A stretch of DNA of 64,000 nt from Isurus oxyrinchus (Eukaryota), in assembly GCA_026770705.1 (NCBI GenBank), contig JANJGN010000018.1, forward strand, positions 51,522,001 through 51,586,000, written 5' to 3'. Of the stretch, positions 8,675 through 41,805 are shown one piece after another; the stretch's first letter is position 1, and every line of letters starts with the position of its first letter. Made by a program: the position numbers and the translations under genes. The notes under the pieces are model-generated. The model made no database searches, was not told the origin of the DNA, and saw only the letters and a program-made list of their open reading frames with translations.

Positions 8675-8696
8675 GATATGCTTCTCCACTACTTTT

Positions 8697-8769
8697 TCAT
8701 ATTACTTCAAAAGGGTTTTTTCTGATATACGGTTGTATAATTGGCTGATATTCTTTTTTACTTGACACC
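8697..8769 (-). CDS. Terminal coding exon (VSSKKEYQPIIQPYIRKNPFEVI*)
   Basis: gtgtttcagcag acceptor (NAGNAG), phase 2, TGA ending at 8697, AATAAA about 23 nt downstream. Confidence 0.62.
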
Positions 8770-9693
8770 CTGCTGAAACACATTCTGGGGAAACCAAGTG
8801 TACAGATAATCTCACTTTAACATGTTTTCAATATTACTAAATGGTGAGTCTACTAGTAAACTAAGCCTACAATAATAACCACTTTTTAAGATGTTTTACC
8901 CATCACAGCATAACAGTTAAAATCTAGTTAGAGTCCCTTTAACTTATGCTTTCAATCTCTTGAGACTCATTACTGAATTTTCCCAAATATATCCATCCAC
9001 CCAAACAAGTTTCCCCAGCTGAGTGAAAAACAATGGCTCATTCGACGTTGATGGGGTTTCTGTACAGGGGCTTTTGAGTCAGGAAACTCCAAACAAGATT
9101 AAAATTGAGCCGGCACAAAACCTGATTTTCACGCTCTGTATATTTTTCCTTTTCTTACTTTAAGAAGAAAAATAAAAAGTTAATTCATTTCTGCTGGATA
9201 TGTCTATCTATTCCCAATTTTCTTCTCTCATTTCTTGGATGCAGTGTACAAGTGGCCATGTTTCACGGACTAGATTTTCCACTCAAGTTGGGAGCACTGA
9301 TAAAACTCAAGTTAGAGTGAGAAATACAATGGAAGCTGATCCACTGGCTTCTGGTTTGTTTCTGCTGCTTCTAGGCCTTTTCTCCACATGTCAAAACTCT
9401 CTCCTGGGACCAATTATTTCCAACGCATGTATCTAAGGGGTTCTCCAGTCCCACTGGCAGGGGGTAATCATCGCAGGCGGGACGGAAAATTTGACAGACC
9501 AGCCAAAGGTCCGTCGATTTTGGATGGAAGTTTCCAGTCCCATCCAAAATCCCAGCCCTAGTGTTAGGTTGCATTTGCTTTAGTCGCTTAGTAATTCATG
9601 TTGAATTAATTCAGCAATGATTTAATTTTCACATTGTCTTCACTCTCCCATTTAAATCTTGTTAAAACACAAAGCGGAAGCATCAGAGCTAAT

Positions 9694-10483
9694 GGGGAGA
9701 ATTTTCTCCCCGTCGGACAGGTCGGTTGGGAGTGGGCTGTGCGCTGGCATTTTACGTGGGCGGGCCAATTAAGCCTGCCCAGCATGACATGCGCCCAGTA
9801 GCGCTATCTGTATGGGGGACGGAGGGAGAGTCGGGGCCTATGCTCTTTCATGCATGCATGCAAAAGAGTGCAAAAATCTCCCTGAGGCACAGAGCTGCCT
9901 CAGGGAGATTAAGTTCAGTTATAAAGATGAAAAAAAAATATTCAGGCATGTTCCCTCATATGACAGTGTCACATGAGCTGGGACATGTTTAAGAATTTTC
10001 ATAAAAAGTTTTATTGAACTGGTAAACCCTTCATGAAACCTCATCCTGCCTGTGGATGGGATTTCATGAAAAATGCGAAGGCCGCCTGAGCTCTTTGCCT
10101 GCCCGCCAACCTTAAGGTTGGACGGACAGCCCTGACAATTACTTTAATTAAAAGCAAAATACTGCAGATACTGGAAATCTGAAACAAAAACAAAAATTGC
10201 TGTAAAATCTCAGCAGGTCTGACAGCATCTGTGGAGAAGAAGACGGAATTAACATTTCAAGTCTGAATGACTCTTCATCAGAACACTTTAATTACTTTAA
10301 TTAGTTTACTAATGGCCTTAACAGGCCTTTGACAGTTCAGGGGGTGCGCAGCCGACTACAGTGCTCGCCCGCCGAAAGGAAGATACGTGGTGATGTCGGG
10401 ATGCACGCCTGATGTCACTGCTCGTCATTTTCCGTATCGGTGTGCGGGGCCTGCCCCCACATGCCAATCAGAAGATTCTGCCC
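9694..10483. mobile_element. Harbinger-type MITE with a nested Penelope-end insertion (10151-10284)
   Basis: TIRs GGGGAGAATTTT/AAGATTCTGCCC, TSD AAT. The nested piece is flanked by duplicated ACTTTAATTA. Confidence 0.8.
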
Positions 10484-10507
10484 AATGAGTGGTACAGCAA
10501 CTATTAC

Positions 10508-10568
10508 CTAAAGGCGATGAATTTTGGTGAATTCTGAATTACGGCTGCCCCATCATGCCATGCAATCT
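10508..10568 (-). CDS. Cytoplasmic exon B (61 nt, EIAWHDGAAVIQNSPKFIAFR)
   Basis: Long polypyrimidine tract ttttcttttattgtgttctacttgtcag, TTTAG|gtaata donor. Phase 1 in and phase 2 out, matching the terminal exon. Confidence 0.6.
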
Positions 10569-10664
10569 CTGACAAGTAGAACACAATAAAAGAAAATCAT
10601 AACATGGATGATTCAATATCATAAGAGGCAGATGGTCAGGGTTCCCTACTCTAAGGATATGGGC

Positions 10665-12440
10665 ATAGAATCATAGACTGCACCGGAGGAGGTCATTTGA
10701 CCCATTATGTCAATGTAGCCCTCTGCAAGAGCAATTCCACTAGTCCCACCCTCCTGCTCTTTCCTTATAACCCTGCAAATTTTTATCTTCAGGTGATTAT
10801 CCAATTCCCTTTTGAAAGCCATGTTTGAACTTGCCTCTGCAGCTCAGCTTCAAGCAGTGCATTCCAGATCCTGTCTACTCTTCGCATGAAAAAATATTTC
10901 CTCATGTCGCCATTGTTTCTTTTGCCATTCATCTTAAATTGGCGTCCTCTGGTTCTGGACTCCTCCCCCAACAGAAACTGATGCCTCCTACCTATTCTGT
11001 ATTGACCACTGATGGTTTTGAACATCTCTATAAAATCTCGTCTCAACCTATCCTTTTCTAAGGAGAACAGTCCCAACTTCTCCAACCTATCCATGTAACT
11101 AAAATCTCTCATCCCTGGAACCATACTTGTGAATCTTTTGTGCACCCTCTCTGAAGCCTTCACTTCTTCCTAAAGTCCCTGCCCAGAATTGGACACAAGA
11201 CTACAGTCTTTTACAAAGGTTCATAACTTGCTCCCTTGAGTTACAAAGCCGAGGATCCTGCATGCCTTTTGACCACTTTCTTAACCTGCCCTTCCACAAT
11301 CGACAGTTTGTGCACATGTACCCCCAAATCTCTCTGTTCTTGCACCCCTTTCAGAACTGTAACCTTTAATTTATATTTTCTCTCCCTGTTCTTCCTAGCA
11401 AAATGTGTCACTTCACATTTCTTTGCATTAAATCTCATCTGCTCAGTGTCTACCCATTCCACCAGCCTGGCTACGTCCTTTTGAAGTTTATCACTATCTT
11501 CCTCACAGTTCACAATGCTCCCAAGTCTTATGCCATCTTCAAATTCTGTATTGTGCCCTGTAACCCAAGTTGAAGTCACTAATATATATCAGAAACTGCT
11601 TGTACAGACTCTTGGGTAACCTCACTATATGACCCATGTACCTTCCTCCAGTCCAAAAAACTATAGAATGAGAGATAAGGCTAAAAACAGCTGAGTCTCA
11701 TGTTCTTATCTCCTTTTGCAGTAAGTACACAAACTGGGATACTGCACCTGCTGGTAGTCAAAAGACAGTCCAAAGCAGTGCACTTCTGCTTTAGAGAAAT
11801 GAGGCATTCAACTTTTTCCCAATCTCTCAAATTACCCCTCATCAGCATATATTTTTCAAGTCTCACTTTCCAATACAATGTGAATACTGCAGTTAAGCCT
11901 CATATCAAGATCTCAGTGACAAATTGTGTAAAAGTAAGTTTTGCCTCAACGGTGGTGTAACCTCAGATCAATACCACTTCCTCGGACTAGATCTGCAGCC
12001 AAGCAGCAATATCTGAAAGCCACTGTCAATGCAAGTGAAAACTGTACTCAACTTCCTTCACACTTGACTATTTCAGGAGCCAGCAGAAGATGACATTCAG
12101 ATCATGATAATGTTCAACACGACATTACTGCTGTAATTGATGCCATATGTTGGCATGAATCTAGAAAGACATAATTTTGCCAAACATGTTGCATCTGCTG
12201 AGTGCAAGATGCCACTGCTTGTATTCACGTGCCTCGTTGCTAATCCAGAACATTTATCTATGCACAGAGAAAAGGTCACAATGCAGCCCTTGAAAAACAT
12301 TACCAACTACATTCTTGCCATTTCAAGGAACAGATATTTACTTCTACTCACTGCTTTGCTTTATGCCCCCCCTATCCATGCCACCAATTTATCTTTAACA
12401 CCATGGGTCTTAATGTTTGCCATACTTCTCCAAAGTGGCC
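10665..12440 (-). mobile_element. CR1 LINE 3' fragments (two ages)
   Basis: ORF2 C-terminal motifs RLEKLGLFSLEK..LRRDFIE, QMRFNAKKCEVTHF, QRDLGVHVH, THGVKDKLVAW. Confidence 0.85.
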
Positions 12441-12525
12441 AGCTTTTTGCATAATGAAAGTGAAACTGATAGCCACAGTAAGCCCATCTGACTATCATTG
12501 GTGTAAACCAGGACCATTGTCATAC

Positions 12526-12600
12526 CCATAAAGTTGTGGTCCTTAGTGACACTTCTGAGGTGCTGTGAACCATGACTCTTTGTAAAGCTGGCCTGACTCC
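12526..12600 (-). CDS. Cytoplasmic exon A (75 nt)
   Basis: ctctgcaattttcag acceptor, TGG|gtatga donor. Open in phase 1 (SQASFTKSHGSQHLRSVTKDHNFM) and in phase 0 (GVRPALQRVMVHSTSEVSLRTTTLW). Confidence 0.55.
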
Positions 12601-13562
12601 CTGAAAATTGCAGAGGATTAGGACATGTCTATCCCTGCAATGGAGCTGGCCAGGGCATATGACGCGAACTGCATCCTTAAAAAACCCTGGTGAAAATTGG
12701 AAAGCCTGGGAATGGGGTCGGAAATCCAGGAATCAAGTCCTGACCACCCTTTTGAAAGGTCCACGGAGTCTCCATGACTAAAAATCCAGCCCCTAGGAAT
12801 TAAAATAGTCCAAGCCACATTTCTGTAATAGCGAGTTAGTTTTTAAATCACCTTGTTACTTGGGCGAAAATCAGGGACTGTGATTTTCCTTATTAATGTG
12901 TAAATAACCGAACAATTCATGGCAAGAAAGATTTGCATCAAATTGCGAATTGCCATGAATTGCAGGACAATTTGCACCATCTGCCATTAGCCTTGTGAAA
13001 AAGGGACAATCTCCTAGTGAGTTAAGAAATTGCTGTATTTGTGCTGTTCAAATGAATTAAACTTGCTGCAGATGCTTAGGCCTTATACATAATAACAACG
13101 TAAGATTCTTAATGATGAGATTTATGTTCCTGCAATGCCATTGAACCTCTCTCAGCCCAGAAAGGCAATAACTGAAACTGCAGTTTCATTCCTGTAGATT
13201 CCTTGAGATTTTTTAAAAAAACTAAATTTTGTATTTTCTCTTTTTCTGTCCCTTTTTTCTGACTCTTAATCTAATCTTTCTTTGCCTTTCTTTATCTAGT
13301 TTGACCTATTTTCTTCACTGTCAATTCTTTGTTTATTTCTCTATCATTACATCTCATGGGTTTAGGAGATACACTATTGATTCCATCATTCACCAAGGTT
13401 ACCAAATGCCCTATTACTAGTGACAGCTCACACTTTCACCAATTTTTGACCCAAACAACTTTCAAGCTGAAGGATGAGGGAAAAAATCTAACAGGAAAGC
13501 CACTAGATGCCCTATTGCAGAAAATTCTGTACCATTGTGTAAAGCAAATAAACTTTCCTTAC

Positions 13563-13678
13563 CTTTCTTTGTTGGTGTCTCCCCTTTTTGTACCAGTAGA
13601 AGCTGAATATAAATATAGCTATCAGAATTATTACCAGTACTAAAATAATCCAGACATGGAGCTGCGATTTTGTGTGTG
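13563..13678 (-). CDS. Transmembrane exon (AHTKSQLHVWIILVLVIILIAIFIFSFYWYKKG...)
   Basis: tttttgcag|CA acceptor (phase 1), ~21 hydrophobic residues then basic residues, AAG|gtaagg donor. Confidence 0.85.
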
Positions 13679-13728
13679 CTGCAAAAACACAAAAGGGAAA
13701 TATGAATACCTTTGGTGAAAGCTGGGAT

Positions 13729-14411
13729 GGACAGAATTTTATGGTTCCCCATTGGTGTGTTTGCAAGTGAGGGGTGGCGAGGGGCAATAAAATTTGATGG
13801 ATGCCCTCCCACCTGCCCCAACATGTCTGCAATTTCACATGGGTTGGTGGTAGGGGGAGAGGTGGACCTGGAGGTCAATTATTGGTCGCTTAAGGGCTGC
13901 TAAAAGCCCAGCAGCAATTTTGAGGCTGGTGGGAGCAGTTCAAGGATGGGAAGTCCGGCAGATCATCCTGCTTGGGTCTCAGGCAGGAAAGAGGGGGAGC
14001 CCCTTCTGCCCAAGTTCCCCCTTGGATACTCCCTCTCTGCCTGGCCTTGCCATCACAACCCCACCCACCTCTCCCCACCACCCCAGGGGCTCTCCTTCTG
14101 CCTCCGCCATGAGACCTTGCACCTACCTGGTCCTGTGGGCTCCAGCACATTGACTCTGGGGACTGGGTGTAGTTCCACCAGTGGCCATTGCTCCCCGTGG
14201 TACTGCTGGGGCTACAGAGCTTGTGACCAATTAGATTGATTGACAGATCTCTGAAATAGGACTTCTGCCTGAGTAAGGGGCAGATGTCCCATCTCCAGCC
14301 AATTAATGTCCCTCAAACCATTAAATGACTGTGGGGCTGCCCTGATCAGCATTCTCTGCTGATTCTTTCAGTGGCTGGATGGGAAACACTGCCATTCAAA
14401 AATTCCTGCCC
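13729..14411. mobile_element. Harbinger-type MITE
   Basis: GGACAGAATTTT...AAAATTCCTGCCC termini. Confidence 0.6.
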
Positions 14412-14899
14412 CTTGTGTTCTTTTTTCTTTTTGTAGTGTTGTTAATTATGAATTTGGATCAGATAGTCCTGGTTTTGTGTGAGTTGTTCAGAAATATTAA
14501 AAAAGTAAAGATAATGCCAGAAGTCTCTTTTTAAGGGAAATCAGTTATTCCTGTCCACCTATTTCTGCATTTTAAGGTTATTAAGTTTTTCAAAGAATTT
14601 TGTTTATTAGAAGACAAGCAAATATCAGAACTTTAATAAAAATCTAACTTGTCCCCAATTTAATCTTGTATCCAGTCGATTGTATGCAAAGATATAGGAG
14701 CCTGCATTAAGCAAATTTTTAAAATATTTTTAAAGCAAATTTTCTGCCAGGTCGAGAGGGATGCTCAGAATGGTGGACCATGAAATGTGCCAAAAGGTAT
14801 TTTGTGTTCCCTCATTTACATGAAATATAGATTAGAAAAGTACTGAGAGTTTAGAGGCCCTAGGGGAGATGGATTCAGAGCAAGAGGCTAAAAATGCAG

Positions 14900-15215
14900 A
14901 TGCAATTCCTTAACGAGTCATCTGCACTTCCTCTGAAGCAGATTTTTGTACCTTAATTTTTGTGCTAGGTTTGTTGGAGGACGAGCTGGAAATTTGCAAG
15001 TGCTTTGGGCGGTCAGCCTATTCTCATACAGAGCCTCAGAAGTTATGTTGATGGAGGCGATTCAAAGGAGAGCTGCCACTTTTGGACCCTCTCCACAAAA
15101 GGCATCTGTCAGGGCTGCATGGGAAGAGGTGGTGAATCAAGTCAATGCAATTTCTAATATTAATAGATCTTTTTTCTAGGTGAGGAAATAAGTTCAACAT
15201 CATAAGGAAGATTGT
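14900..15215 (+). mobile_element. Harbinger Myb/SANT ORF remnant
   Basis: AAWEEVVNQVNAIS..NRS trihelix motif. Confidence 0.5.
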
Positions 15216-15949
15216 TGCTTGAAGTATATGCTTTATGTTGTTTTTTGGCACACACAAATGCACCTTGGCCAGTTGCATACTCACATGGCACGCTTCATCT
15301 TTCCAGGCCCTTTCCAGTCTAACATTAACATAATGCCACCCATTTTCAGGCATGCCATTGCTTTCACATATCCCAGAAAAACTAAATCTATGATGGCAAT
15401 ATGATTGTTTGGCGTTGAAAGCCATTTAGTTATTTTAAACAAATGCAAAATATTGTGAATATTGGAAATCGGAAATGAAAATAGAAAATACTGAAAATAG
15501 TCAGCATGTCAGGCAACATATGTAGAGAGAGAAACAGAATTAACATTTCAGGTCAATGACCTTTCAACATAACTTGACCTTCAGTATAACCAACTCACTT
15601 TACTTTAGAGCTATCCTTGCCTTAGTTCCATTTTAGTAATTGCTTCATCCAAAGCTTTAATAAAGCACTTATCTTTTACTTCAAGTATCAAGGACTGCAA
15701 GCTTCAATGATTTTTAGATACCAACCACACTCCATCCTTCTTCATCTGCAATTTCTTTTGACCTCATTCCTCCTTCCAATCTTAACCTTTGTAGTGTTTT
15801 TACTATGCACTATGACCTTCCTGCCTGTGACCCCAAATGTTCACTCCTCAGCAAAGGCCTCAGCTTCATCCCCTTATTCTCCCACCTCAATGGCTCAACT
15901 CTCAAGCTCGACATGATGCTGAGATCTTCTTCCAATGCCTTTGCAAGTT

Positions 15950-16908
15950 TATAAGATTATTATATTTTGGACTGTAGCTTAAATTTAGCATAAATGAAGG
16001 GATCATGTGACCTTTACTGAAGTCTGCCTGATAGTAAGCTTGGGTGGTTTGATTGTTAGAGTTTGATGAAAGGCTTAGACTATTTTACTGAGAAGAAGGT
16101 GCAAGGTATTTATACTTGGAGAAAATGGCAGCAGTTCCTGAATTTACCAAGGGCTGACCCAGAGTCTCCCAAAGTCCCAGAAAAGTGTTGTAGGTATCAG
16201 GTTGAAAAGTTAAGTTGCAGATTATCCATATACTTCTAAGATGACAGCGAGCTGGGATCAAGGATAGCTAATTAGCATTTTTACCTAGATACAAGGTTAA
16301 TGTGTTTCACTTTGCCATGTGGAAGAGGACAAGGAAGCCATTTTTGAGGTCAAGTTACAGGGCTCCCTACAACTCAATGAATATCTCAGATAGACAGCAG
16401 TTCTGTGTGGTCAGCAGAGAGAAGAGGCTGCTTGACCTTGTGAGCTACTACAGCCAGATGTGCAGGGAAGATGGTCTCTAGTCAAAAAGATGCATCCTGA
16501 AGCCTTCCACAGATTCTGGGAGATTTGTTCTAGCATGGCCAGGGGGTAGAAAAATCATCACAATGGGCTTTACTGCTGCTAGTGGCACCTGCAGATGGTC
16601 ATTTCAAATTACTACTGGGCGAAGCAGGGATTCGGGAACCCATTGGAATGAGCTATGGACTATTTGCTACAAGGACTAATTCTGTGAGGAGTGTAACGTG
16701 TGATAATATAAGAGGAGTATATTCCTCTCTGTAACTTAAAGTATAAGTTGCCTACAGAAGGAATAGGGTGTTTAGTCGATGGTACTTTTAGTTATTTATT
16801 ACAGTAAAAGTTTTAAAATGTGCAATGTTGTCAAGTCATTCTTTCAGCTATCAACTGGAAGTTTCAATTTCTCATTAAAAGTTATTGATCTCAATGGAGA
16901 TTGTAACA
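15950..16908 (+). mobile_element. Probable solo LTR
   Basis: Ends ...TTGTAACA with LTR-like composition. 5' end and TSD not resolved. Confidence 0.3.
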
Positions 16909-17103
16909 GCGCTCATATCTTTAACAAGAAGTCCTCACCTGCAAAGTAGACAATAGAGTTCTGATGAAAGGTTAACAATGTGAAATATAAATGCTGTTCT
17001 CTCCCTAGCATTTTTGGTTTTCATATAACTCATTGATATTGATAATGAAGTTCATTTTCTTGCCTTCAAGCTTTATTTATATTCTCATTTGTATCAATCT
17101 TAC

Positions 17104-17439
17104 CCTGCACTGTGAGGCAGGTCTTCCCAATGTCTTTGCTATTTCTGAATGTATAAAAGACACACTGATAACATCCTTCATCTTCAAGCTTCACTCCAGA
17201 CAGTACAATAGTGGACACTTGTACCTTTGATGATATGGAAGTAGCTCTACCAATAAAGGACCCAGAAAAATTCGCTTCAAGTTTTCCACTGAATGTCGCA
17301 ATATTGTCCTCAGATTGACCATTCAACTTTTGCCACGTGACCTGTAGAATATCTTCTAAATGTGAAGTACAGCTGAAGGTAACATTTCCACCTAAAACTG
17401 CTGTCATATTCTCCTGCGTCTCCACATTTATATCCTTTA
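17104..17439 (-). CDS. Ig V-set domain exon 2 (tandem duplicate) of CD200-like gene
   Basis: tttgacag|TA acceptor, CAG G|gtaag donor, 336 nt, phase 1/1. Highly similar to 19984-20319. Confidence 0.92.
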
Positions 17440-17554
17440 CTGTCAAATGGAAAATGAATACAGTAAAACATCAATTGTTTCACAAACATTTTCTGTAAAG
17501 TATTTATCTCTGAAGTACTCAGGGGTTTACAAACTACAGAGGACTTTGAATGCC

Positions 17555-17860
17555 AATGTGGCTTTGATAGTACTTTTATCTCTGAGTCACAGAGTTGTTG
17601 GCTCAAGTTGCACTTCAGAAATTGGCTGCAAACTCAATATACTCTGACACTTGCAGTGCAGTATTGAGAGAGTACTGCACTATTGGAGGTGCCATCCTAC
17701 GGCTGAGATGTTGAACATAGGCCCCATCAGCCCTCTCAGGAGAATGTAAGATATATCATATTTGATCAAGAGTGGGAGAGTTTCCCCCAGTGTTTGGTCA
17801 ATATTAATACCTCAGTGAACATTAATAAAATAGATAATTTGGTCATTAATTGGTTGGCGC
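17555..17860 (+). mobile_element. SacSINE1/DeuSINE copy (duplicated with the V exon)
   Basis: tRNA-like head and Deu-like core (ggaggtgccatcc..ggctgagatgttgaac). Same position relative to exon V2 as the 20444 copy is to V1. Confidence 0.7.
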
Positions 17861-18416
17861 TGGGCCCTCAATTTTCTCTGGTCCACAGCAGCCACACCAA
17901 AGGGTTTTAAAGTGTCTGTTCAATGCTGTTACCAAGGATAGCTTTTTACTTTCCTGAATATGAAGTCAGGAGGGGTGGGAGTACTGATCTTCATCTTCGG
18001 TCTGGCCATTGTCCTACCCATTGTGATGTGACTGCCGGCCCACCAGTCACATCCTGATCACACGAGGACCAATTATACCTGATTCTCTTCTTCAGCTATG
18101 GCATGATAGGTTATGTTTGTTGCAGAGTTTGCTGGGCAAGAATCAATTGGTAGGCTGTGTGTTTGAAATACTATCCACTCCATATTTCAGTTTGCATTTG
18201 GTCCCTGGTTGCTGTTTTATAATTCATCCCTAGTATTCTTGCACTTTAAACTGCAACATCTTAATTTTTAGAAGGTTGTTTGTACTATTTTTTCCCAGTT
18301 CTAGTAGCAAAAATGGAAGAGATGGACTGGATGAAAATTAGATGGGAAGTACAATCGTTTTTTTTTCTTTCTTGTGCTGCTCACCATTTCCTGCCCAAAG
18401 TTTGAGGGGTAATATT

Positions 18417-19234
18417 GGGCAGAATCTTCTTGAAATGTCAGGGGTTTTGCCTGCCAGCTGGATAGCCAGTGAGAGGCCTGCACAGCCTCTCTTCAGAAGG
18501 CTGACTGAACCACACGTGAATCAAGCAGTAGCAAGGCCAATGGGGAGCCTTCTCCAGAATCAAGACTCTGGGGGGCGGAAGTCTCACCTACAAAGAGCTG
18601 CCAGTCAATCAGAGGCTGGCAGCTCTTGTGCTTAGCAGCGCCACTTGGTAGTAGGTGGTGGCGGCTGCTGCAAGGATAGGCACCAAAGACCCAGGGTTGA
18701 GGAGTGACCCAAACCACAGGAAAATAATTGGAGGGGGGGTGCAGGGGGAGGGGGGGCAGTGGTGGAAGGAGGGGGGAAGGGTGCAGAAAGGGGGGAAGGG
18801 GGGATAGAGGGTGGTGTTTCGCAGGGTGGAGGTTGTGGGGAGAAAGGTTGGCAGCAGCAAGGGTTTGGCTTTGAGTGGGCCTCTCCTTCTCAATGACCAG
18901 TTCTGGCAATGCCTTTGATTGAGAGAACACCTTTCTCCACCCCAGGAGATAACAAGCTGGCCATGTGGTTATAGCTGCTGTGCACTCTGCATGGTGACAG
19001 GCCTACCTACCTCTGGGTTAATACCAGCGGCAGTGGAATGAGGCCCTTAAGTGGTCATTCACTGGTAACCTAAGGGCCTTAATTGACAGTTGAACAGGAA
19101 GGCCTTCTCATCCAGAACTTCATTCTGGCAGAGGTGGGAAGGTGGCAGAGCTCAGGTATGTCACCAACCCAACTAATTGAATGCACTTTCCACCTGCATG
19201 CTTGTCACCAGAGAGAGAGCAGAAGATTCTGCCT
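18417..19234. mobile_element. Harbinger-type MITE with a G-rich tract
   Basis: TIR GGGCAGAATCTT/AAGATTCTGCCT, TSD ATT. Confidence 0.75.
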
Positions 19235-19983
19235 ATTGGCGCTACACTTTGGAAATTTAGCTGCTGTTTGTTAATTTTGTTAGTGAGCTATGACAGAAAT
19301 ATATGACAGTATTCTATTGCTTTTAAAAATCAGTTTTAAACATGCTCTGCTATGCCCTCTGGGACATAACTCAGCAACAGCCCACCTGTGGTCTGCTTAA
19401 ACTGATGAGCAGTAAAGTGTCAAAAACCTTTGATTCAATACTCAGCTGTATACTTTACTCCATGGCAAAACAGACATCTCAAATTCCAATCAATGAATCT
19501 TTACAATTAAGTTGGAACCAAAAAATTCACTTAAGTGCAATTTTCAATACAAATAGACAATGTACAGAACCTTCCAAGGTGTAAAATATAGTTTAAATGT
19601 TGTGCTTTAAAGTAATGCAAGGTAAAGATAAGATAGGTTATTTATCTCAAATAGGAAGCACAGATTTCACAAGTATCTTGCAAGATTCCTCTGTCAACAT
19701 GAAATAGTGGATTTGTGGGACAGACTCCCAGAGAAGCTATTAATTCAAAGCCAAAGATACAGTTAAAAGAAACTGGGTCAAATAGCCATTGAGGAAGAGT
19801 TGTAGAGGTAGTAATAAATCTGTTTAATTCATTTGAGAATTTGAAAGAAAGTACAGGGATCTTGGGTAAGAAACTCACGATTAAAGTAGCCATATATGGA
19901 CAATGGAAGGAGATGGACTGATGAGATGAACAGCCGTTTTTGGTTTCAAACTTTTTTTATATTCTTATTTGTATCATTCTTAC

Positions 19984-20319
19984 CATCTACAGTGAGGCAG
20001 GTCTTCCCAATGTTTTGGCCATTTATAAATGTATGGAAGATACACTGATAACATCCTTCATCTTCAAGCTTTACTCCAAACAGTACAATAGTGGACACTT
20101 GCATCTTTGATGGCATGAAATCAGCTCTACCACTAAATGACCCAAGTATATTGGGCCCATATTTTTCACTAAATGTAGCGATATTGTCCTCAGATTGACC
20201 ATTTAACTTTTGCCACGTGACCTGTAGAATTTCTTCTAAATGTGAAATACAGCTGAAGGTAACATTTCCACCTAATACTGCTGTCATATTCTCCTGCGTC
20301 TCCACATTCAGAAGTTTTC
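19984..20319 (-). CDS. Ig V-set domain exon 1 of CD200-like gene
   Basis: tttcacag|GA acceptor, GAT G|gtaag donor, 336 nt, phase 1/1. B-strand Cys (TFSC), C-strand Trp (VTWQK), DEGCYQC and the extra G-strand Cys (KTCLTV) typical of CD200. Confidence 0.92.
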
Positions 20320-20443
20320 CTGTGAAATAGAAAAATATAGTAAAACACATCACTTGTTCCACAAACATCATCTGTGATGTATTCGGCTCTAAGGTGTTCA
20401 GAGATATTCATAAGGTATAAGGTATTACAGTGGACTATTCTGT

Positions 20444-20810
20444 CAGCCGTGGCTCAGTGGTAGCACTCTCACATCTGAGTCAGAAAGTTCTGGGTTCAAG
20501 TCGCACTCCAGAGACTTGACTGCAAAATCTAGATTGACACTGCCAGTGCGGACCTTTGGAAGTGCTGTCTTTCAGATGAGAAACTAAACATCTGTCAGGT
20601 GAATGTAAGGAATACCACAAAGAGCAGGGAAGTTATCCCCAGTGCCCTGGACAATATTGATCCCTTAAACAATATCGTTAAAGCAGATTATCTAGCCATT
20701 ATCACATTAGTGTTTGTGAGACCTTTCTGTGCACAATTTGGCAGCTGCATTTCCTACTTATATTCAAATGCATTTTTAACTGGCTGTAAAGCACTTTGAG
20801 AAATTCTGAA
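20444..20810 (+). mobile_element. SacSINE1/DeuSINE-type tRNA-derived SINE
   Basis: A-box TGGCTCAGTGG, B-box GGTTCAAGTC, Deu-like core and 3' tail (ggctgtaaagcactttg). Confidence 0.8.
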
Positions 20811-22706
20811 ATACTGAATCAACTGATGCTAATGATAACATTATTACATTATATTCAACTCACAAGGAATTAAATCTAAACAATCTCTACTTCTTGAAAC
20901 ATGATTTGATTCAGAAGAATCAGCTGGAGAACTTTTGCTTCGTGTACACTTATTCAGCTTGACAAAATTGGGAGCAGTGGTTATTTCATTGTCAATCATA
21001 ACTGATATGTCGGAAATCGTTTAATTCAAGTGAGCACACCTTAAGTTCTTATCTGAACAGCTGTGTAAGAGCCACATAGAAGATTTCTGATTCATGGTAG
21101 CAGCCTTGATTGTCAATCTGGGCAATTCCCAACCACAAGCAGCATGAGGTCCCTGCCTAATTGGGACTCAGGGGCTGGGATTATCCTTCCAGCACCAGTA
21201 TTTTAGCGGAACAGGACTTCCGCTTGACCCGGTTTCGCAGTCTGGGGTTCAAGCCATATGCACAGCATGCTTCTGGCAGGATTCTCCCCACTAATAGGGA
21301 GCCTGCCATTGAAATTCCAGCAGTTATGTAGAAGAAGAGGTAGCCGGGCAGTTACTGGACCAGAAATGCCTTGAAGGTGGGAAGATATGTAACAAGGGCT
21401 GGAATAAAGTTGTTAATATTTGGATGTATTGCCACTTCCTTTTCTCAAATACTTTTAGAACTAATAAATTAACGTGCTTGAGGAAAATAATTTTCCTTTC
21501 AACATTGTTATGATTTTTTTCCCCTGGATTTCTCTCAGCAACATTGTGGGGATTAATCTTTAATTCCTGGAGACTCCAGGTCAACCCTGGATGGTTGGCA
21601 GCTGCAGACTGGAATGGAGGCATTCTGGAGGGTGGTGCAACGACCTCCCATTGCAGCAGGTAACTGGCGTTTTCTCAGCAATTTGTCCAACTCTTCACGC
21701 AGACTCTATTCCTGCAATTCTAGATGACTACTCATTCTTTCTTCCCTCTGTTCTTTCAGACACCACACCTTATCTGTCAGGACTTCTCTCCCACAATTTC
21801 TTCATCATATTATTTTCATGGTCATGTCATACTTGAAACATAATTACTGCACTTACCTGTGTTTACACATATTCAGAGGCATGTGTTTGCACATCATGAA
21901 AGAATGAACCAAATATTAAAGCAACAGTCCTGACTAAATTGAACAAACCAGCAATTTTGTGTATATTTTTGTGCAAAGACTATGTGCAACATGGTGACTT
22001 TGAAGTGAAACTCCCCTGAAACACAAGATAGAAAATTATTGGGATTTATCATCAACTATAATAATACAAAAAGTCAGCTCCATATATTGATCGAGTTTTG
22101 TTTAAAAAATAGCCCATTAGTTAAATGCAAATTCTAAGACATTTTTGATATTTTGTGTATTTCTGTTATGCATTAAGACATTTTTAATATGTCTTGTATT
22201 TCTGTTTGTGAATAAAATGTTACCGGTTGTGGTGTGGACCAGCATGCAGAGCTTAACACCGGATGGGGGGAATATGGAGTGCGGAGGACATTGGGACAAA
22301 GGGAGAGGAATTCTGACCAAAGACATCACTGCTGAGGCTCATATTGAACTTTTTAAAAATAAAGACAGTTTCAGCTAAACAGACAGATGCACACAGACAT
22401 GTCAGCACTTGTCACTGGGGTGGTGGCTCACCGCCAGGCACCCTGCCTACAACAGATCTCAAATGTTGCAAGAATGGAGAATGCAAAGGAAGCTTTAAGT
22501 TTTAATGTGTTATTTGGCACTTTGAGTTCACATTTCTAGGTTGTGTGGAAATGTGGAAGTGTGGATGTGATTGCTAAGTGTGTCTTGTCAATCACCAATG
22601 TGTCAGCAGAGATTGCTGTTTGAGGTTTTAACAATCTGTAAAGACAAAGCACTAATTGCCCTGTTCTTTTATATGGAAGCAGGATTCCTTTTGTTTTAGA
22701 CTAAAT

Positions 22707-23288
22707 GGGCAGAATTTTTCCGTCGGCGAGCTGACGCAGGATGACATCGGGCGGAACCCCTGACATCATCCCGCCCCATTTAAATATTCAGGAAGGCAGA
22801 CGGACAGCGCGATCAGCTGTCCACCCACCGACCTGTCAATGGCCAACTGAGGCCATTGACAAGATCATTAAGCCAATTAAAGGACCTGCCCGTCCAACCT
22901 TAAGGTTGGCGGGCAGGCCAGGAGCGTGGGCTTCTGAAAAAAACATGAAACCTCATCCACTGGCGGGATGAGGTTTCATGTCTGTTTTAAAAAAGTTTAG
23001 TAAAGTTTTTGTGATATTTATTAACATGTCCCATCTTGTGTGACATTGTCACAGCACTTAGTCTCAGGGAGATGTGTGCTCTTTCGTGCGCACTCTGACA
23101 GTTGGGGAAGCCCTCCCCCTCTACACAGGAAGCGCATAGCGCTTTCCGTTGGGTGGCCCACTGGGCGGGCCTTAAGTGGACCGCCCACTTAAAATGGTGA
23201 CAGGGCCCGTTTTGGTGGCGGCGATCGGCTGCCCGCCCACTGCCAAGCCGGTGGGGCCTGCTTGCCCATCAAGGACAAAATTCTGCCC
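22707..23288. mobile_element. Harbinger-type MITE
   Basis: Perfect TIR GGGCAGAATTTT/AAAATTCTGCCC, TSD AAT. Confidence 0.85.
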
Positions 23289-31390: not shown

Positions 31391-34285
31391 ATGGCCACTC
31401 ATGGACAGAGGGAGGGAGGACTGAGTGGAGGACAGCATGAGCAGGAGAAGGGGGTCAGGCTGCAGGAGAGGCCAGCGGGGGGCCACTGTGACCCTTGCTT
31501 CTCCAATGCATGCCTTGCTGTCCTCCTCCAAGTGGTTTCCAGCTGTCGGGAGGTATTGTATCCGGATGATGGGAGGAGGAGTGCTCCCCATGTCACCAGG
31601 CAGGCATGGGAGGAGGTTGGTGATGCTGTTAGCGCCCATGACGATGTGCAGCGCACAGCAACACAGTGCCGCAAGCACTTCAATGATTTGCTGTGCTCTA
31701 GAAGGGTGAATACCATGTCAGCCTTGGCCATTTGACCCAGCTGGTAGCCTTAGCCTTTGAGCCCACACTACCGCCCCCCCCCCCCCCCCCCCCCCCCACC
31801 AGCCCCCCACCACCCCTCCCACCCCACCTCAGCCCCCACGTTTTACTGTCGTTACTGCATTGGGCATTTGGTGCACGCTGGGGTGGGCAAACAGATAGTG
31901 ACCATGCTTACATCAGCCTTAGCGGTTGAGGAGAAGATGGGTTCTCCTCGCAGCATATGTTAGTGTTTGTTGCATTTGAGTAGTCTGGGGGCAACCTGCA
32001 GGGGAGGCAGCTAGACACATACTCAGAACTCCAATACATGTCTTATTGATGGTGATGAGATGGTGGAAGGGGAGCCTCAAGGTGTTGTGGCCAAGAGCCA
32101 TCTGCTGGCATCAGCGCCACACCTAGTTGCACCTCCTTGCCATGGGCGCTAAGACCTGTGTGTTATTCAAAGTGATGGACACCAAATGTGTCCAAGGTGG
32201 CCATTGGGGGAGGGGATTGGGAGCAGCCATACTACCTTCTGGTGCCTGATGACCGCTGGAGGCCTCAGATGGGCCAATGTGGTTGGGGTGTGAGTTGTGC
32301 GTGCAGAGTACATGAGCGATCAGCCCCATAAATCCTCTTCTCTGTTCTGCAGGCAAAAACTGAACACAACCTCAGGGGGTGCCAGAGGATTGGTGGTGGG
32401 CACACCGTGCTGCAGCACGTCACCACCTACGAGGAGCAGGTCATGGAGCTGGGAAGGAGGCAGGCAGCCAGGGCGGCAGGTGTCGGCAAGGCTGGGGTCC
32501 AGCGGCCAGGTATTTGAGGGCCACAGTCCCATCCACTCTGTCTGCCCACCATCCAAACCACTGATGGCTGCTGCAATTTTTAATGCTGAAACAATGCTCT
32601 TGCACAGACTGAGACACTCTGACGTGTGGGTCATACACAAAGGTCCCTCGTCCCCTTGAGGAAAGCATCTCCACCACCTTCCAAAGTCACCTTATCCCAT
32701 TTGTGACCACGATCAGCATGGCCTAACATGCCAATGGTATCGCTGCTGCACATCCAAAGAGTTATTGCATCTTAGGGGGTTTGGGACCTCCAGCACCCTT
32801 TCAGCCAGTGTGCCTCACAATACTCTGTCCAAAAGGTCCTCAGCACTTCAGCTGTGAACCTCATGGCACTCAAGTTAAATAAATGCCACCACGTTACTTA
32901 TCCCTGCGCCAAGGGGAAATGTTGCCTTCTGTCCACCCAGTCTATGCCCCTCATAACGGTATGAAGGTCAATAATGTGACCTGTCAATCTCCTGTGCTCC
33001 ATGGCAAATGTCGCAAGTGTTTGCGATGTTTCCTCATAACTCCAACTCTCCAGGCCAGCATGTATCCAGGTCAGGAACCTCTGCACTCTCTCCACTCCAA
33101 TGGCACATAACATTCCATGTGGCATTTCTGAGGCCATCTGACCAGCTTGTCTGTATGCGCGTCTAATGTTTGGGCCTCCTCTTGACTCTTTTCCATCCCA
33201 TCAATGTTCGTCTACTTAGGTTATTGAAGGGTGAGCGACTTATGAGGCTGGGAGGAGAAAGGGATAAAAGGTGTTAATGACTGAACGCTAACTGATGCAC
33301 TGTCCTTGTTGTTAATTTCAGTATCACCATCGCATGGCCGCGGCCAACAAGACCGGAGCCCCCCCTCCACACCTGAGGGCCAAGACGTGCAACTTGCGGC
33401 ACATCATTTCAGCCATTAAGGCACAGCGCAGCCACAAACACTTCTGTGGGGAATGTAACGTCAGCTCATGTCCCAGGTCACTGTGGAGAGGGCACTTCAG
33501 AATTGCTGGAGGAGATGGCAGGAACAGAGAGTGCCAATGGCGCCAGCAGCCAGAGGGCTGCAGGGGACCAGGCACATGCTGAGTCTGGCAATGATGATGT
33601 GCCTCTGGAGATGTCATCAATGCAGCAGCTGCAGGGCAAGCGGCAGGAATCGTGTTTATATCTGGCAGGGTTGCATGAGGGTATGCTTCAGTAGGTCTCT
33701 GTGGTGGATGAGTCCAAGCAGAGTGCACGTGAAGGCATGAACCTCAGGGCAGAGCTTCAGGTTTCCTCCACTGAGAGATTGGCGGCTCTCATGGAGAGGG
33801 GGTTCGATCAGATGGAGAATCTTCTGTTTGGGTTACGTTCTGACCTGCAAGCCCCCACAGCGGTAATGGCCACGGCTGGTCATTCCCAATGTGGGAGATG
33901 TTGTGGGCACCAAGTGTCGGTGCTCGGTGCACATGCATCTGTGTTGAGCAGGGAGGTCCAATATGACCTCACGTCGGCGCAGCAGTTGCCTGTTGTTGCT
34001 GCAAGCTCCTCTCAGGGCGCTCCGGATGAGGGCAGCAGCTCCTTCGCCCCTCTGCCAGTCAACGGTGCTTCCGTTGAGGCTGCGACAACTGGAGCGGTGC
34101 CAGTTCTGGAACTGGCCACTCCCTCCCACACGGGGCCATCCCAGACTCCATGGGCTAGAGGATGCCCACCAAGGTCATCGAGGCCAACAGGACAGCAGAG
34201 TCAGCAGGCTGTCTCACAAGCCACTCCGAGCGATGGGGCGGCACCTAGACGTAGCACCCGAAAACGTAAGCATAAGGCACGTTAG
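31391..34285 (+). pseudogene. Harbinger Myb/SANT-like DNA-binding protein (spliced, disrupted)
   Basis: FSNACLAVLL..V...REVLYP..AWEEV..AVS..RTATQCRKHFNDL. Donor at 31706, acceptors near 32352 and 33321. C-terminal basic RRSTRKRKHKAR. Confidence 0.75.
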
Positions 34286-34573
34286 GCACTCCATGGCTAT
34301 GTCACTGGTGATTTTGTGTTGGCCTTAGAATAGGCAACAATATACTTATGTTTGAAATGGAGAAGTTTCTGTTATATTTTCTGACCATGGCTGAGGGTAT
34401 TTCCTTTGTGCTGCATTTTTCTTTTCCACAGGCATATCATGAATGTTTGAGTGGACATTAATGTTTCTGCACTAAGCCCTTAGTTGCAGTTAATGAGGTG
34501 GAAGATGTAGCACCTAAATGCCATATGTGGAAGCGCCAGGCAATGCTGCTCCTGCTGATCCATGTGTGTGGAG

Positions 34574-35790
34574 CTAGCTGAAGGTTGTTTGGATTAAATT
34601 GTCCCGGGTATTCCTGCCTCCTTGGTGTAGTAGCAGGTCGGCGTGCTGCCCCTCATCATTTCCCTGTGCTTCCTCATCCTCTGAGCCACTGCTGGATACA
34701 TCATGTGCAGCCTCATCCACTGTGTCAAGGTCTTCATCGTCAACTGCATCCCCCCTTTCCAGCGCAAGATTGTGCAGAGTGCAGCATGCTACCACTAACA
34801 GAGAGACGTGATCTGGGGGGTACTGCAGTGCGCCCCCTAAGCAGTCCAGGCAACAGAAGTGCATCTTGAGAAGACCGATTGCTCTCTCCACCACAGCCCT
34901 TGAGGTGCCCTGGGCTCCTATTGTAGTGTTCCTCAGCTTCTGTTCTTGGATAACAGAGAAGCGTCATGAACCACCTTCTGAGGGGATAGCTCTTGTCACT
35001 CAGCAGCCAACCATCCAGCCAGGCTGGAGCACTGAAGAGCCCCGGCACCTGGGAGTGTCTGAGGATGTAGGCGTCATGGGAGCTGCCTCAGTACCTTGGA
35101 CAGACTTGCAGAATCAATATCCTGTAATCACTCACTATCTGCACGTTCATGGAGTGGAAGCCCTTCCTGTTGACAAAGGCACCGGGCTCACCTGCTGGCG
35201 CCTTGATGGCCACATGTGTGCAGTTTATTGCACCCTAGACAAGGGGGAAGCCAGCAATGGCTGCGAAGCCTCTGGCTCGCTGTGCCTGACTTGCCTGGTC
35301 ACAGCGGAAGTGGATGAAGGTCAATACCCATCTGAACAGAGCGTCTGTAACCTGCTTGACACAAGTGTGGACAGCTGATTGGGAGACACCGCAAAGATCA
35401 CCCACCGAGCCCTGGAAGGAGCCAGAGGCACAGAAGTGGAGGGAAACAGTGAGCTTCAGAGCCACTGGCATGGGGTGTCCACCCACACAGTTAGGGGAAA
35501 TCTCAGGGCCTATCATCTGACAGATATAGTTGACTGTCTCCCTTGAGAGTCGGAGCTTCCTTCGGTACTGCACCTCAGTCATATTGAGGTAGCTGCTTCA
35601 CCGCCTGAATACCCTGGCAGCAGGATAGTGGAGTCTTCTGTGGCCTTTTCCACCTTGAATAACCTCTTGGCCCTGCGCCTGTCCTCCCTGGAGGCTGATT
35701 GTCCAGTCCTGGCCTCCTCCTTATTCTATCCCTCCCTTCCTCCTCAAGGGAGATGCCTCTAATGGAGATGTCAGAACCTATACCCCCAAG
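34574..35790 (-). pseudogene. Harbinger (HARBI1-like) DDE transposase, disrupted
   Basis: [60 protein letters not shown]. Confidence 0.88.
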
Positions 35791-38049: not shown

Positions 38050-39270
38050 AGCACAGAATTGATACAGCACAGAAGGAGGCCATTCGGCCCATTGTGTCTG
38101 CACCAGCTCGCTGAATGAGCAATTCACCTAGTGCCATTCTCCAGTCTTCTCCCCACAACTTTTCACATTGTTCCATTTTAAATAACAGCCTAGTTCCATT
38201 TTGAATGACTTGATTGAACCTGTGTCCACCACATTCTCAGGCAGTGCGTTGCAGGCCCTAACCGCTTGCTGCATGAAAAAGTTTTTTCTCGTATCGCTTT
38301 TGCTTCTTTTGCAAATTACTTTAAATCTGTGCCCTCTCCTTCTCGATCCTTCCACAAGTGGGAACAGTCTGTCCAGACCCCTCATTATTTTGAATGCCTC
38401 TATCAAATCTCCTGTCAACCTTCTTTTCTTCAAGGAAAAAAGTTCCAACTTCTCCAATCTTACTTCATAACTGAAGTTCCTCATCCCTGGAACCATTCTC
38501 CTAAACCTCTTCTGCATGCTCTCCAATGACTTCACATCCTTCCTAAAATGTAGTACCCAGAACTGTATGCAGTACTGCAGGTGGGCTCTAAATTGTGTCT
38601 TATGCAAGGTCAACATAACCTCCTTGCTCTTGTACTCTATGCCTCTATTAATAAAGCCTAGGATACTGTACGTTTGGTTAACTGCTCTCTCAACCTGTTT
38701 TGCCACCTTTAATGACTTATGCACTTAAACACCCAGATCCCTCTGCTCCTGCACCCCCTTTAAAGTAGGCCCTTTATTTTATACTGTCTCTCCATGTTCT
38801 TCCTACCAAAATGTATCACCTCACATATCTCTGCATTGAACTTCATTAACACCTTTATCTGCCCATTCCACCACCCCATGTCCTTTTGAAGTTCTACAAT
38901 ACTGTTCTCCTCATAGGTAACAATGCTGCCAAATTTTGTATTGTACACAAATTTTGAAATTGTTCGCTGCACACTAAGGTCTAGGTCATCTGGAAAAGCA
39001 AAGATTCTAATATTGACCCTTGGGGAATTCCACTACAAACCTTACTCCAGCCTGAAAAACATCCATTACCATTACTCTCGGTTTCCAGTCACTCAACCAA
39101 TTTTGTATCCGTTTTGCTAATGTCCCTTTTATTCCATGAGCTATAAGTTTTCTCACAAGTATGTCGTGCAGCACAGTATCAAATGCCTTTTGGAAGTCCA
39201 TGTACACCACATTAACAGCATTGCCCTCATCAACCCTCTCTGTTACCTCTTCAAAAAACTCGAGCAAGTT
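38050..39270 (-). mobile_element. CR1 LINE ORF2 3' portion
   Basis: VYMDFQKAFD, MKFNAEICEVIHFG, LQYCIQFW, LELFSLKKRRLTGDLIE. Confidence 0.9.
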
Positions 39271-39949
39271 AGTTCATTGTGCCTGTTTGTGGACAAGGAA
39301 TCTCTTATGATTAAGTTTTATTTGGGTACACAAGACTAATAGGTACATTTGAAAAGCTTTTGTTTTTTAATTTACTAAGAAACTGAGTACTGAGCCATAT
39401 TATAACCAACAAATGGTTCTGTGTATCTTTCAAAAGTAAGTGAGTAATCTAAAAATTAGGTTACTCATGGGTGGTGGATTGAAACAGTGACTAAAACTCA
39501 TTTTTCAGCTGATTATTCAACGTTATAAGTTACAACTCTTAAACATACCAAGGAATATCTTTAAAAACAATTTTAAAAACTTACATTATAAAATATTGCC
39601 TGATTGCACTGGTTGACAGATATTACATTTGGTGATAGCCAAGTGAGTATGAGCAGAAACTTGAGAAAAGAAACGCTTCTCAAAACTGACACAATTGGCT
39701 CCAGAATCATCTATTACTCTACCCTGTGGTAAAAGAGTTAATTCAAATTCTTAACTCTGGGAAAGCCCTAGGACCTGATGGTTACCCATGAGTTTACAAA
39801 GGTTCAATTCAACAACAACTTATATTTATATAGCACCTTTAATATAATCAACTGTCCCAAGGCACTTCACAGAGGTAGAGAGTTGGAAAGGTTGAAGGAG
39901 AGTTTAGGTCAGGCAGCTGAAGGCATGGCTGCCAATACCTGGTGGCACC

Positions 39950-41070
39950 CTTCTATCTCATAAGATGATGGTTTGCGCCGTGATGGTCAACTCTGTGTTA
40001 AGCATCGCTTTGTTCCATTCTGGCATGGCAACCTCTGCTGCATTTTCTGCAGATGAAGACAGTAGGCTGAGAAGGTGTATGATTCCCTGACCTCTGTTTT
40101 CTCTGGACTCTCTTCTCGGCCAGCTGAACTTTTCGTTTCTGTTTGCCTCTTCCAATACCCTTCCAAACAGTCAGCCTCCAGAGATCATGTATGTCAGCAA
40201 CTGTTTCCAGTTGTCAGCGTCAATGTCCACCATCTTCATATCTCGCTTTCAGGTGTGCTTGTAAACATGGTATGGACGCCCTGTGGCCGGTTCACCATAT
40301 AGAAGGTCTTTGGGTGTATGGTCACCATCCACCCGATAAACATGACCGAGTCAGCGGCTTAACAATGAGTGTATGCTGATGGAATTAGCACACTACAGGA
40401 TCTCCGAGTTGGTGACCTTGACTTGCCAAAACATTCTGACGATATGTCTGAGACAGCAAACTGAAAACTATTCAGCCTTTTCTCCTGCCTAGCCTTTGTT
40501 GTCCAGGCCTCGTCAATGTAGAGGAGTGTGCTGAGGATGCAGACCTGGTAGACTCACAGTTTGGTGCTCTCAGTCAGGTCGCTGTTGTTCGTCTTCCTGA
40601 GGCCGATGGTTAAACCAAACTTTTTACACGTGTGAGAGAATCTATCTATTTGCTGCTGAAGATGTTCCTCAGTATGAAATGTTACTGCAACCTCATCAAT
40701 GTAGAGCAACTCTCTGAAGAGGATATGGTGCATCTTTGCCTTGGATTTCAGATAAGCAAGGCTGAACAGTTTCTTGCAGTTCTAGTATGTAAGTAGACAC
40801 CCCCTGTAGACGACCTGAATGAATATATCAGCGGCACATAGAACAATATGCCAAAGAGAGTTGGTGTCAGAACACAACCCTGTTTAACACCACTGCAGTT
40901 CTCAAAGGGTTTCGATGTTACCCCGTCATAGCTGACCTTACCCATCATGTTGTCATGCAAAGAGGAGATCACATTCAGCAGCTTCGATGGGCAGCCAATT
41001 TTCTCCAGCAGCTTAAATAGACTGTCTCTGCTCACATGGTCAAATGATGGCATGACAAAAGACAAATCTG
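39950..41070 (-). mobile_element. RTE-clade LINE RT fragment
   Basis: FDHVSRDSLFKLLEKIGCPSK..GVKQGCVLTPTLF. Confidence 0.85.
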
Positions 41071-41762
41071 GACTGGCCACCAATGATAGAGCAATTAAAA
41101 TCAGGGATGCTCATTTGACTGGCATTAACCTCCCTGAACTGGCAATATTCCTACAGGAAGACTGCATCACACTGAAGGTTTTATACAGGGCTGACACTCA
41201 GGGCATAACATCTGAGACATGCTACAATAGCACTAAACCCTTACTCAAATACATTTTCTGGATGAACAGAAGGTACTTGACCAAATAGCACCAAGAAATG
41301 GATACCTCTCAAAGTGATTCCAAAAGCACCCAATCCCCCAACCCAGCCAGAGGCTTAAGAGAAACTGAAGAAATCGTAGACAAGAGCAACCTTCAGTATA
41401 GAGAGAGGATATAGGTAAGTTGGAAGTACTGCTTTTATTACTCCAATGTTAAAATGCTCCACTTAATTTCACTGTCAAGATAAACTTAGGTCTTCATGAT
41501 AACATCTGGTGCATTCATCTGAGTTGTTTTTTAATGTAAATATTCGACCATATTATTACAGTAATTTTCATAATTACATTTATTTTAATTAATCTGATTG
41601 TCATTTATAATCGTTTTAGTTTTTTCTGTAAGCATGTTGATACGTTGCTAGATAATAACGGAACAATGTTTTCTCCAATATTTTTTTCCCTTTAATTTCC
41701 TATTCACATCGATCACTACAGCCTAGAATTCGATGAGTACATAAAAAGTAAAGGAGTCTCAC

Positions 41763-41805
41763 CGTCTGCCACAGCGGCCAGTAGTACAAGGGTAAAGAGT
41801 TTCAT
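41763..41805 (-). CDS. Exon 1, signal peptide MKLFTLVLLAAVAD(G)
   Basis: ATG, then a hydrophobic core, ending GAC G|gtgag (phase 1). Joins in frame to the phase-1 V1 exon (G+GA=Gly, KLLNVETQ). Lies in non-repetitive sequence. The link across a 21-kb intron is inferred. Confidence 0.7.

Follow-up and report, generated by a model that had tools for sequence, protein, structure and literature searches.

A likely CD200 gene with two V domains and no C2 domain in the shark Isurus oxyrinchus

In mammals, the CD200 gene lies near the genes of CD200R, ATG3 and CCDC80, and nectins are built as V-C2-C2 proteins. The V domain of CD200 carries a disulfide between strands F and G that is described in PMC3664923 as conserved in CD200 and unusual in immunoglobulin (Ig) domains elsewhere, and in the model given there the CD200-CD200R pair spans about four Ig domains (~12 nm, near the 14 nm of a synapse). 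The signal of CD200R is given in PMC8007030 as EEDExxPYxxYxxKxNxxY, with a fully conserved last tyrosine. Here, a CD200-type gene was analyzed on the minus strand of a 64,000-nucleotide stretch of the Isurus oxyrinchus genome (assembly GCA_026770705.1, contig JANJGN010000018.1, positions 51,522,001 to 51,586,000; "the window", to whose first letter positions refer unless stated otherwise). At a probability of roughly 85%, this gene is the Isurus CD200, a type I membrane protein with two tandem V domains, no C2 domain and a likely tail of 11 residues, predicted to be the ligand, through its membrane-distal V domain (V1), of a CD200R-like receptor encoded nearby.

Exons, ectodomain and family placement

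The signal-peptide, V1, V2 and transmembrane (TM) exons (Table 1) bear the AG and GT ends that each position requires, and both V exons score above the Pfam V-set cut-off. The signal exon matches the N-terminus of white shark model P0002, and the translation of the TM exon is identical to that model at 39 of 39 residues; the nearest public proteins are those of the basking shark and the white shark, at 96%. An AlphaFold model of the white shark protein displayed two V folds and one TM helix (mean predicted local distance difference test, pLDDT, 76.7). Contigs from four runs (X1, X3, X5 and X6), all guessed to be RNA and none recorded as such, were mapped on 6500-23500 at 88% likeness over 17 kb, a stretch that the splice from signal exon to V1 exceeds; the junction tables were filled with repeats, and the joints of the gene were read from aligned pieces. 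V1 was covered by contigs from all four runs, and both ends of the TM exon were matched by X3 record 9 and X5 record 18. The exon ends, the V-set scores and the contig match at the TM exon confirm these four exons as the first-pass annotation had drawn them.

The absence of a C2 exon between 17104 and 13678, also noted earlier, held up. X3 record 9 lacks the 3.4-kb intron and joins the end of V2 at 17104 directly to the TM exon at 13678. When a C2 profile of eight CD200-family members was run on 464 kb and later on 664 kb, its best match within the gene was not significant (E ~2-3), and it recovered a control nectin C2 domain at E 8e-14 and a neighbouring C2 at E 1e-10; tblastn with P0016, P0024 (Callorhinchus CD200) and other queries found neither a C2 exon nor a remnant of one in the gene. 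The canonical membrane-proximal C2 domain of CD200 is therefore not present, and because there is no C2 exon and V2 joins the TM exon directly, the gene was classed as a V-V variant and not as a canonical V+C2 CD200. V1 and V2 are identical at 289 of 336 nt and similar in their flanks as well; judged from the sequence, V2 is a tandem copy of V1.

Family placement was assessed with a tree of 62 rows and 109 columns, in which one platypus OX-2-like row is the only mammalian CD200. V1 and V2 fell into a starred 28-row chondrichthyan clade with Callorhinchus CD200 (100/98), which was nested among CD200/OX-2 rows of birds, turtle, platypus and fish (88/85, a node that is not starred), and they were separate both from CD200R and from the nectin-like and TIGIT/CD226-like domains of the same genome. 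Furthermore, the F-G cysteine pair, which is also seen in structure 4BFI_B, was present in 47 of the 49 CD200-group rows, V1 and V2 included, and in none of the 13 other rows. The clade and the cysteine pair bear out the CD200-like character that the V domains had been given before.

It is very improbable that the gene encodes a CD226-, TIGIT- or nectin-type V-V molecule that binds nectins and is not CD200. The V-V layout is like that of CD226, a fold search with the white shark model returned single-chain variable fragments, CD226 and JAML, nectins score as high as CD200 in a search of PDB sequences, and the automatic RefSeq models of elasmobranchs carry the conflicting names OX-2, nectin-1-like, nectin-3, nectin-4-like and CD226-like. 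However, the fold matches reflect the tandem V domains only, since that search did not separate the families, and the names are mixed because plain scores fail to tell nectins from CD200. Both the lineage of the V domains in the tree and their F-G pair, which is absent from nectin-like and TIGIT/CD226-like domains, place them outside that group; in addition, the sawshark relative Pristiophorus P0117 combines V+C2 with the same TM exon, and the gene adjoins a CD200R-like gene.

Several further features were observed around these exons. An exon-like stretch with a strong acceptor and donor precedes V1 on the minus strand (21857-22015) and is closed in the frame that V1 requires; alternative first exons are present in other sharks. 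At 41806-41835 there is an in-frame upstream GTG; the basking shark model carries an ATG at this place, ten codons ahead of the main start. At 19804-19993, X5 record 20 continues past V1 into the intron with an exon-like depth of 18.6, and such a read-through would give a secreted form with a single V domain, stopping 13 codons into the intron.

The cytoplasmic tail

The first-pass annotation had proposed three cytoplasmic exons (10568-10508, 9157-9122 and 8769-8697) that encode a tyrosine-bearing tail with motifs at CD200R-like spacing, and had read the protein as a possible ligand/receptor hybrid. The splice sites and the EYQPII...NPFEVI reading do exist, but because the TM exon leaves in phase 0 the proposed tail is out of frame after it, and the TM exon joined to the 10568 exon reads RLHGMMGQP-stop. 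The tyrosine frame is reached only by skipping the TM exon or through a second acceptor (GAG) 2 nt on, at 10566, which gives a tail of 65 residues. The spacing itself does not fit the consensus given for CD200R in PMC8007030: the proposed tail lacks both an acidic stretch and a tyrosine at +3, and after the asparagine it has phenylalanine where the consensus has its final tyrosine.

The contigs likewise lead away from these exons. Two contigs that stem from different studies, X3 record 9 and X5 record 18, follow the TM exon and a single G beyond its donor before they part from the intron sequence. The next exon therefore starts with G and not with GT, which excludes 10568 and 10566 (both A) as well as 9157 (T). 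X5 record 18 (depth 17.1) extends 228 letters beyond the TM exon, and these lie on neither the 9157 nor the 8769 exon; record 18 would give a depth of 2.1 in bin 8201-8767 and of 1.2 in bin 8768-9334, and in both the X5 depth is 0. Only this continuation of X5 record 18 was counted, and absent X3 cover on the two exons was not. Spliced contigs thus bear out the V2-TM junction of the earlier gene model but not its continuation into the proposed tail.

Chance and homology were considered as well. The 664 kb yielded 13,394 pseudo terminal exons, of which 2,597 contained YxxPhi and 16 contained YxxPhi, PY and NPF/NPY/NPxY together; because about 0.17 such three-motif sets are expected in this 14-kb intron, the set does not clearly exceed chance. 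The 10568 exon is real and old, and its homologue supplies the short DCQT/NCKT ends of other sharks. When the proposed tail was compared with the C-termini of 13 relatives, Chiloscyllium P0110 gave a clear local score (57, above all 300 shuffles), P0040 scored 34 (2% of shuffles) and the other 11 were at chance. P0110 is an isoform that lacks the TM segment and reads the homologue of the 10568 exon in the proposed frame only by skipping the TM exon. No likeness was found to the Callorhinchus tail (score 23, shuffles 26.5), and at the DNA level the 8769 exon matched the tail exon of the neighbouring CD200R-like gene no better than chance (19 vs 19.6). A common repeat at ~10150-10230 on the minus strand has an acceptor at 10228 and a reading that resembles the CCQHC/CCQNC ends of carpet shark isoforms, which suggests an exonised repeat.

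Relatives tell against the tail too: 24 TM-bearing shark sequences have 13-34 residues after the hydrophobic window, with PYxxY or NxxY in none of them, and such a tail is absent from all 24. With a tail out of frame, a next exon that the contigs exclude, no such tail in the 24 relatives and a separate CD200R-like gene 193 kb upstream, the proposed hybrid does not stand. There is also very little chance that it exists as a minor isoform, running from the TM exon through 10566, 9157 and 8769 to a 65-residue tail with YxxI/NPF signalling or endocytosis. In favour of this isoform, its reading frame stays open across all three exons, Callorhinchus CD200 shows that the group includes long tails, and X6 record 24 (depth 2.2) covers 8525-8767 and ends near the 8769 acceptor, with slight run X1 depth in the same bin. 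However, X6 record 24 is as shallow as pieces of intron and is joined to no exon, and the isoform would have to use a GAG acceptor just 2 nt past a strong CAG, besides conflicting with the contigs, the relatives, the Callorhinchus tail and the CD200R consensus as set out above.

Somewhat less improbable, though still unlikely, is that splicing includes the three exons only in transcripts without the TM exon. These would encode a secreted V-V form of 294 residues in which the motif is extracellular, and this soluble CD200 would accompany the membrane form as a decoy or agonist. From V2 (phase 1), exons 10568, 9157 and 8769 are open to the proposed stop, isoform P0110 omits the TM exon and translates the first of them in that frame, three shark isoforms among 42 elasmobranch sequences have no TM segment, and soluble CD200 is known in humans according to PMC5413580. 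However, the V2-10568 junction is in no contig piece, the exon in P0110 is followed by a different, repeat-like exon, and relatives lend no support to the last two exons.

A short tail fits the evidence better. White shark models end RKG-stop (X1, P0002) and RKV-stop (X2, P0100), and the basking shark model ends RKG-stop. Two acceptors, at window -376 and at 249 (Table 1), reproduce the white shark X1 and X2 models as proteins of 278 residues, each identical at 272 of 278. The -376 exon has ATTAAA at +198 and +205, which fits the 228-nt 3' part, and its phase-2 reading, VN-stop-FGD-stop, aligns with the C-termini of Heterodontus P0003 (AYSFGN) and Mustelus P0103 (IYEFGG). We infer that the last exon lies at window -376; other sharks presumably leave the TM exon in phase 2, with four bases gained at the donor in the Isurus lineage. 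The best-supported tail, read through this junction, is likely of ~11 residues and free of tyrosine and other signalling motifs, as in CD200.

Chondrichthyan relatives and the CD200R-like neighbour

Two V domains were found in 40 of the 42 elasmobranch sequences, the other two being sawshark isoforms with V+C2. RefSeq models of elasmobranchs (white shark XP_041067777.1, basking shark XP_078415919.1 and others) have the same V-V-TM-short-tail layout. All 15 ray and skate sequences (P0010-P0015 and P0122-P0130, seven of them from assembled-read proteins) have a short hydrophobic stretch as their last segment and nothing cytoplasmic after it. A glycosylphosphatidylinositol (GPI) signal would look like this, and these proteins may be GPI-anchored. 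The V domains of Callorhinchus milii CD200 (NP_001279700.1) and of the Pristiophorus OX-2-like protein P0117 lie in the same starred clade, and both proteins, unlike the Isurus protein, keep V+C2. The five Callorhinchus CD200 sequences (P0024 and P0118-P0121) consist of V, C2, a TM segment and a tail of ~150 residues with five tyrosines that is unrelated to the proposed Isurus tail; from these features, Callorhinchus CD200 would be a better candidate than the Isurus gene for a CD200 with a signalling tail. In P0117, the first C2 cysteine is apparently replaced by phenylalanine, as if the C2 domain were decaying. Multi-V CD200-like models that include a C2 domain also occur in paddlefish, turtle and perch-like fish. 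A second CD200 (V+C2 or long-tailed) was not found elsewhere in the genome with V1, P0016 and P0024 as queries, although scores were computed for the best candidates only and one search was stricter in its first step, so that its absence is not established. No paper on the architecture of shark CD200 was found in the literature searched, a scope that leaves out most subscription papers; the protein is already in RefSeq for many elasmobranchs.

The 600 kb around the window were examined for neighbouring genes. A CD200R-like gene with V, C2, TM-like and tail exons lies 193 kb upstream on the same strand (Table 1), and the synteny with a CD200/CD200R cluster that had been put forward as a check is thereby supported. 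The sturgeon CD200R V domain gave no match as a whole-genome query, and the gene was recovered through its C2 exon in the surrounding stretches. The tail, as traced, does not include the upstream acidic PYxxY stretch of bony fish. ATG3-like (43.70 Mb) and CCDC80-like (43.8 Mb) genes lie on the same contig, 7.8 Mb away, so that both the CD200R-like neighbour and the ATG3-CCDC80 block share a contig with the gene, as expected of CD200; TTMP was not found with the single query used, which gave two weak matches only. A V exon 0.75 Mb off (contig 52,336,289-52,336,579) has CD226 and TIGIT as its best solved matches.

Table 1. Exons and acceptors of the CD200-type gene and its CD200R-like neighbour (window positions unless marked as contig).
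Feature	Position	Strand	Details
Signal-peptide exon	41805-41763	minus	ATG, GT donor; 43 coding nt, phase 1 donor
V1 exon, membrane-distal CD200-type V domain	20319-19984	minus	336 nt; Pfam V-set E 2.3e-10
V2 exon, in place of C2 domain	17439-17104	minus	336 nt; Pfam V-set E 2.9e-11
TM exon: stalk, transmembrane helix, basic stop-transfer	13678-13563	minus	116 nt; phase 1 in, phase 0 out
First proposed tail exon; conserved optional exon	10568-10508	minus	Plausible splice sites; 9 residues then stop after TM exon
Second proposed tail exon; candidate exon inside last intron	9157-9122	minus	Splice sites present; TAA first if joined to TM exon
Third proposed tail exon, with EYQPII...NPFEVI reading	8769-8697	minus	Plausible splice sites; GVK-stop if joined to TM exon
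Likely alternative acceptor, reads V-stop	249-244	minus	625 nt before -376 acceptor
Likely main last exon, reads G-stop	-376 (376 bases outside window); contig 51,521,624	minus	Long pyrimidine tract; starts GG
CD200R-like gene	contig 51,756,900-51,788,500 (window +234,900 to +266,460)	minus	193 kb upstream; V, C2, TM-like and tail exons
CD200R-like V exon	~+266,300	minus	Groups with sturgeon CD200R (93/96)
CD200R-like C2 exon	+255,500	minus	42% identical to paddlefish CD200R, 27% to Callorhinchus CD200
CD200R-like TM-like exon	+251,200	minus	
CD200R-like tail exon	+234,900	minus	Y-x4-NSIY as in sturgeon CD200R

Repeats were also seen in the window. Fragments resembling transposon genes lie at approximately 33,700-35,600 and 59,300-64,000 and are, we presume, of Harbinger type, and reverse-transcriptase fragments of long interspersed nuclear elements lie at ~10,800-11,600, 38,100-39,300 and 56,300-58,000.

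Predicted binding and comparison with known systems

V1 is likely the receptor-binding domain. It is identical to mouse CD200 at seven of 11 receptor-contact positions, as mapped through 4BFI_B, and all 11 lay inside the interface predicted for V1 and the receptor. A complex model of V1 with the V domain of the neighbouring CD200R-like protein scored 0.68, compared to 0.00 for the best control; the runs agreed on at least 98% of contacts, and the pLDDT of the partner was at least 79. The mark used for such complexes is reached by 51 of 78 solved microbial pairs and 71 of 105 solved eukaryotic pairs, and by two of 108 and two of 126 mismatched ones, respectively. On this model, V1 would bind the neighbouring receptor and Isurus CD200 would act as a conventional ligand; by analogy with mammals, the signal would then run through the receptor's own tyrosine tail and dampen myeloid cells. 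The V copy would have taken over the role of the C2 domain, holding V1 two Ig domains above the membrane such that the pair spans a synapse-sized gap.

Such a spacer role is in line with F96, which is kept in 13 of 13 V1 domains and four of 13 V2 domains, and with the V2 domains of rays, where only 2-5 of 11 receptor contacts are kept. The V2 domains do not form one clade, a single origin being rejected in a quick tree (p-AU 0.014, approximately unbiased test). This polyphyly reflects either repeated duplication or gene conversion between tandem exons, and because gene conversion would give the same result, independent duplication is a candidate that is not established. It is conceivable, though doubtful, that elasmobranchs rebuilt CD200 more than once, swapping C2 for a V copy at a constant height of two domains; that the copy decayed to a spacer in rays and several sharks and kept its binding face in mackerel sharks, where a second CD200R may be engaged; and that rays lost the tail, perhaps for a GPI anchor, while the tail of the chimaera is long and tyrosine-bearing.

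A number of observations weigh against the reading of this gene as a short-tailed CD200 that binds through V1. The runs are only guessed to be RNA, contigs drop rare isoforms, and the signal-V1 and V1-V2 junctions rest on annotated orthologues and not on contig pieces. The junction from the TM exon to the last exon was not directly seen, the -376 exon being outside the mapped stretch, and other GG-stop acceptors exist at 12634, 11114 and 7628 and at four sites beyond -376; that at 11114, inside a repeat, is compatible with the X5 depth. The X6 and run X1 cover next to the 8769 acceptor, described above, belongs here as well. In the PDB sequence search, V1 scored 56.6 bits with nectin-3, 52.3 with nectin-1 and 52.2 with mouse CD200, and the wider CD200 node is unstarred in a tree of the size and mammalian sampling given above. 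The position of mouse N94, which is needed for binding, is H in V1 and H or Y in V1 and V2 taken together, and the complex score may reflect memory of the solved mouse complex 4BFI, that is, likeness only. A pure spacer role for V2 is weakened in Isurus itself, where V2 retains seven of the 11 interface residues, the same as V1; with these contacts, Isurus V2 may also bind the receptor.

A ligand/receptor hybrid would have mattered; it does not hold, and what remains is modest. A CD200 beside a CD200R-like gene in a cartilaginous fish suggests that the inhibitory pair likely dates to the first jawed vertebrates, and several shark models misnamed as nectin-like are corrected. With C2 swapped for V and two domains kept, the gene would also offer a natural test of whether the second domain of CD200 is a mere spacer of fixed height.

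Compared with described systems, the gene resembles CD226 (DNAM-1) and JAML in having two V domains in tandem before the membrane; however, its V domains are of another lineage, and CD226 and JAML carry signalling tails, unlike the Isurus gene. Its likeness to CD200R1 is limited to the letters PY and NP in an unused reading: the V domains do not group, the tail consensus is not matched, and a separate CD200R-like gene lies upstream. As in mammals, the gene is near CD200R, ATG3 and CCDC80. Among the closest systems is mammalian CD200 (OX-2; mouse structure 4BFI, PMC3664923), which likewise has a V domain with F-G cysteines, two Ig domains, one TM segment and a short basic tail; the equivalents of mouse L30, T33, Q35, N44, T47, T95 and F96 are kept in the shark, but the second domain is a C2 domain in mammals and a near-copy of the V domain in Isurus. 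The TGF-beta receptors, as presented in PMC13187141, offer a parallel in an unrelated family, in which a binding domain was repeatedly duplicated in separate lineages and one copy later diverged; there, however, a domain was added, whereas in Isurus the C2 domain was replaced.

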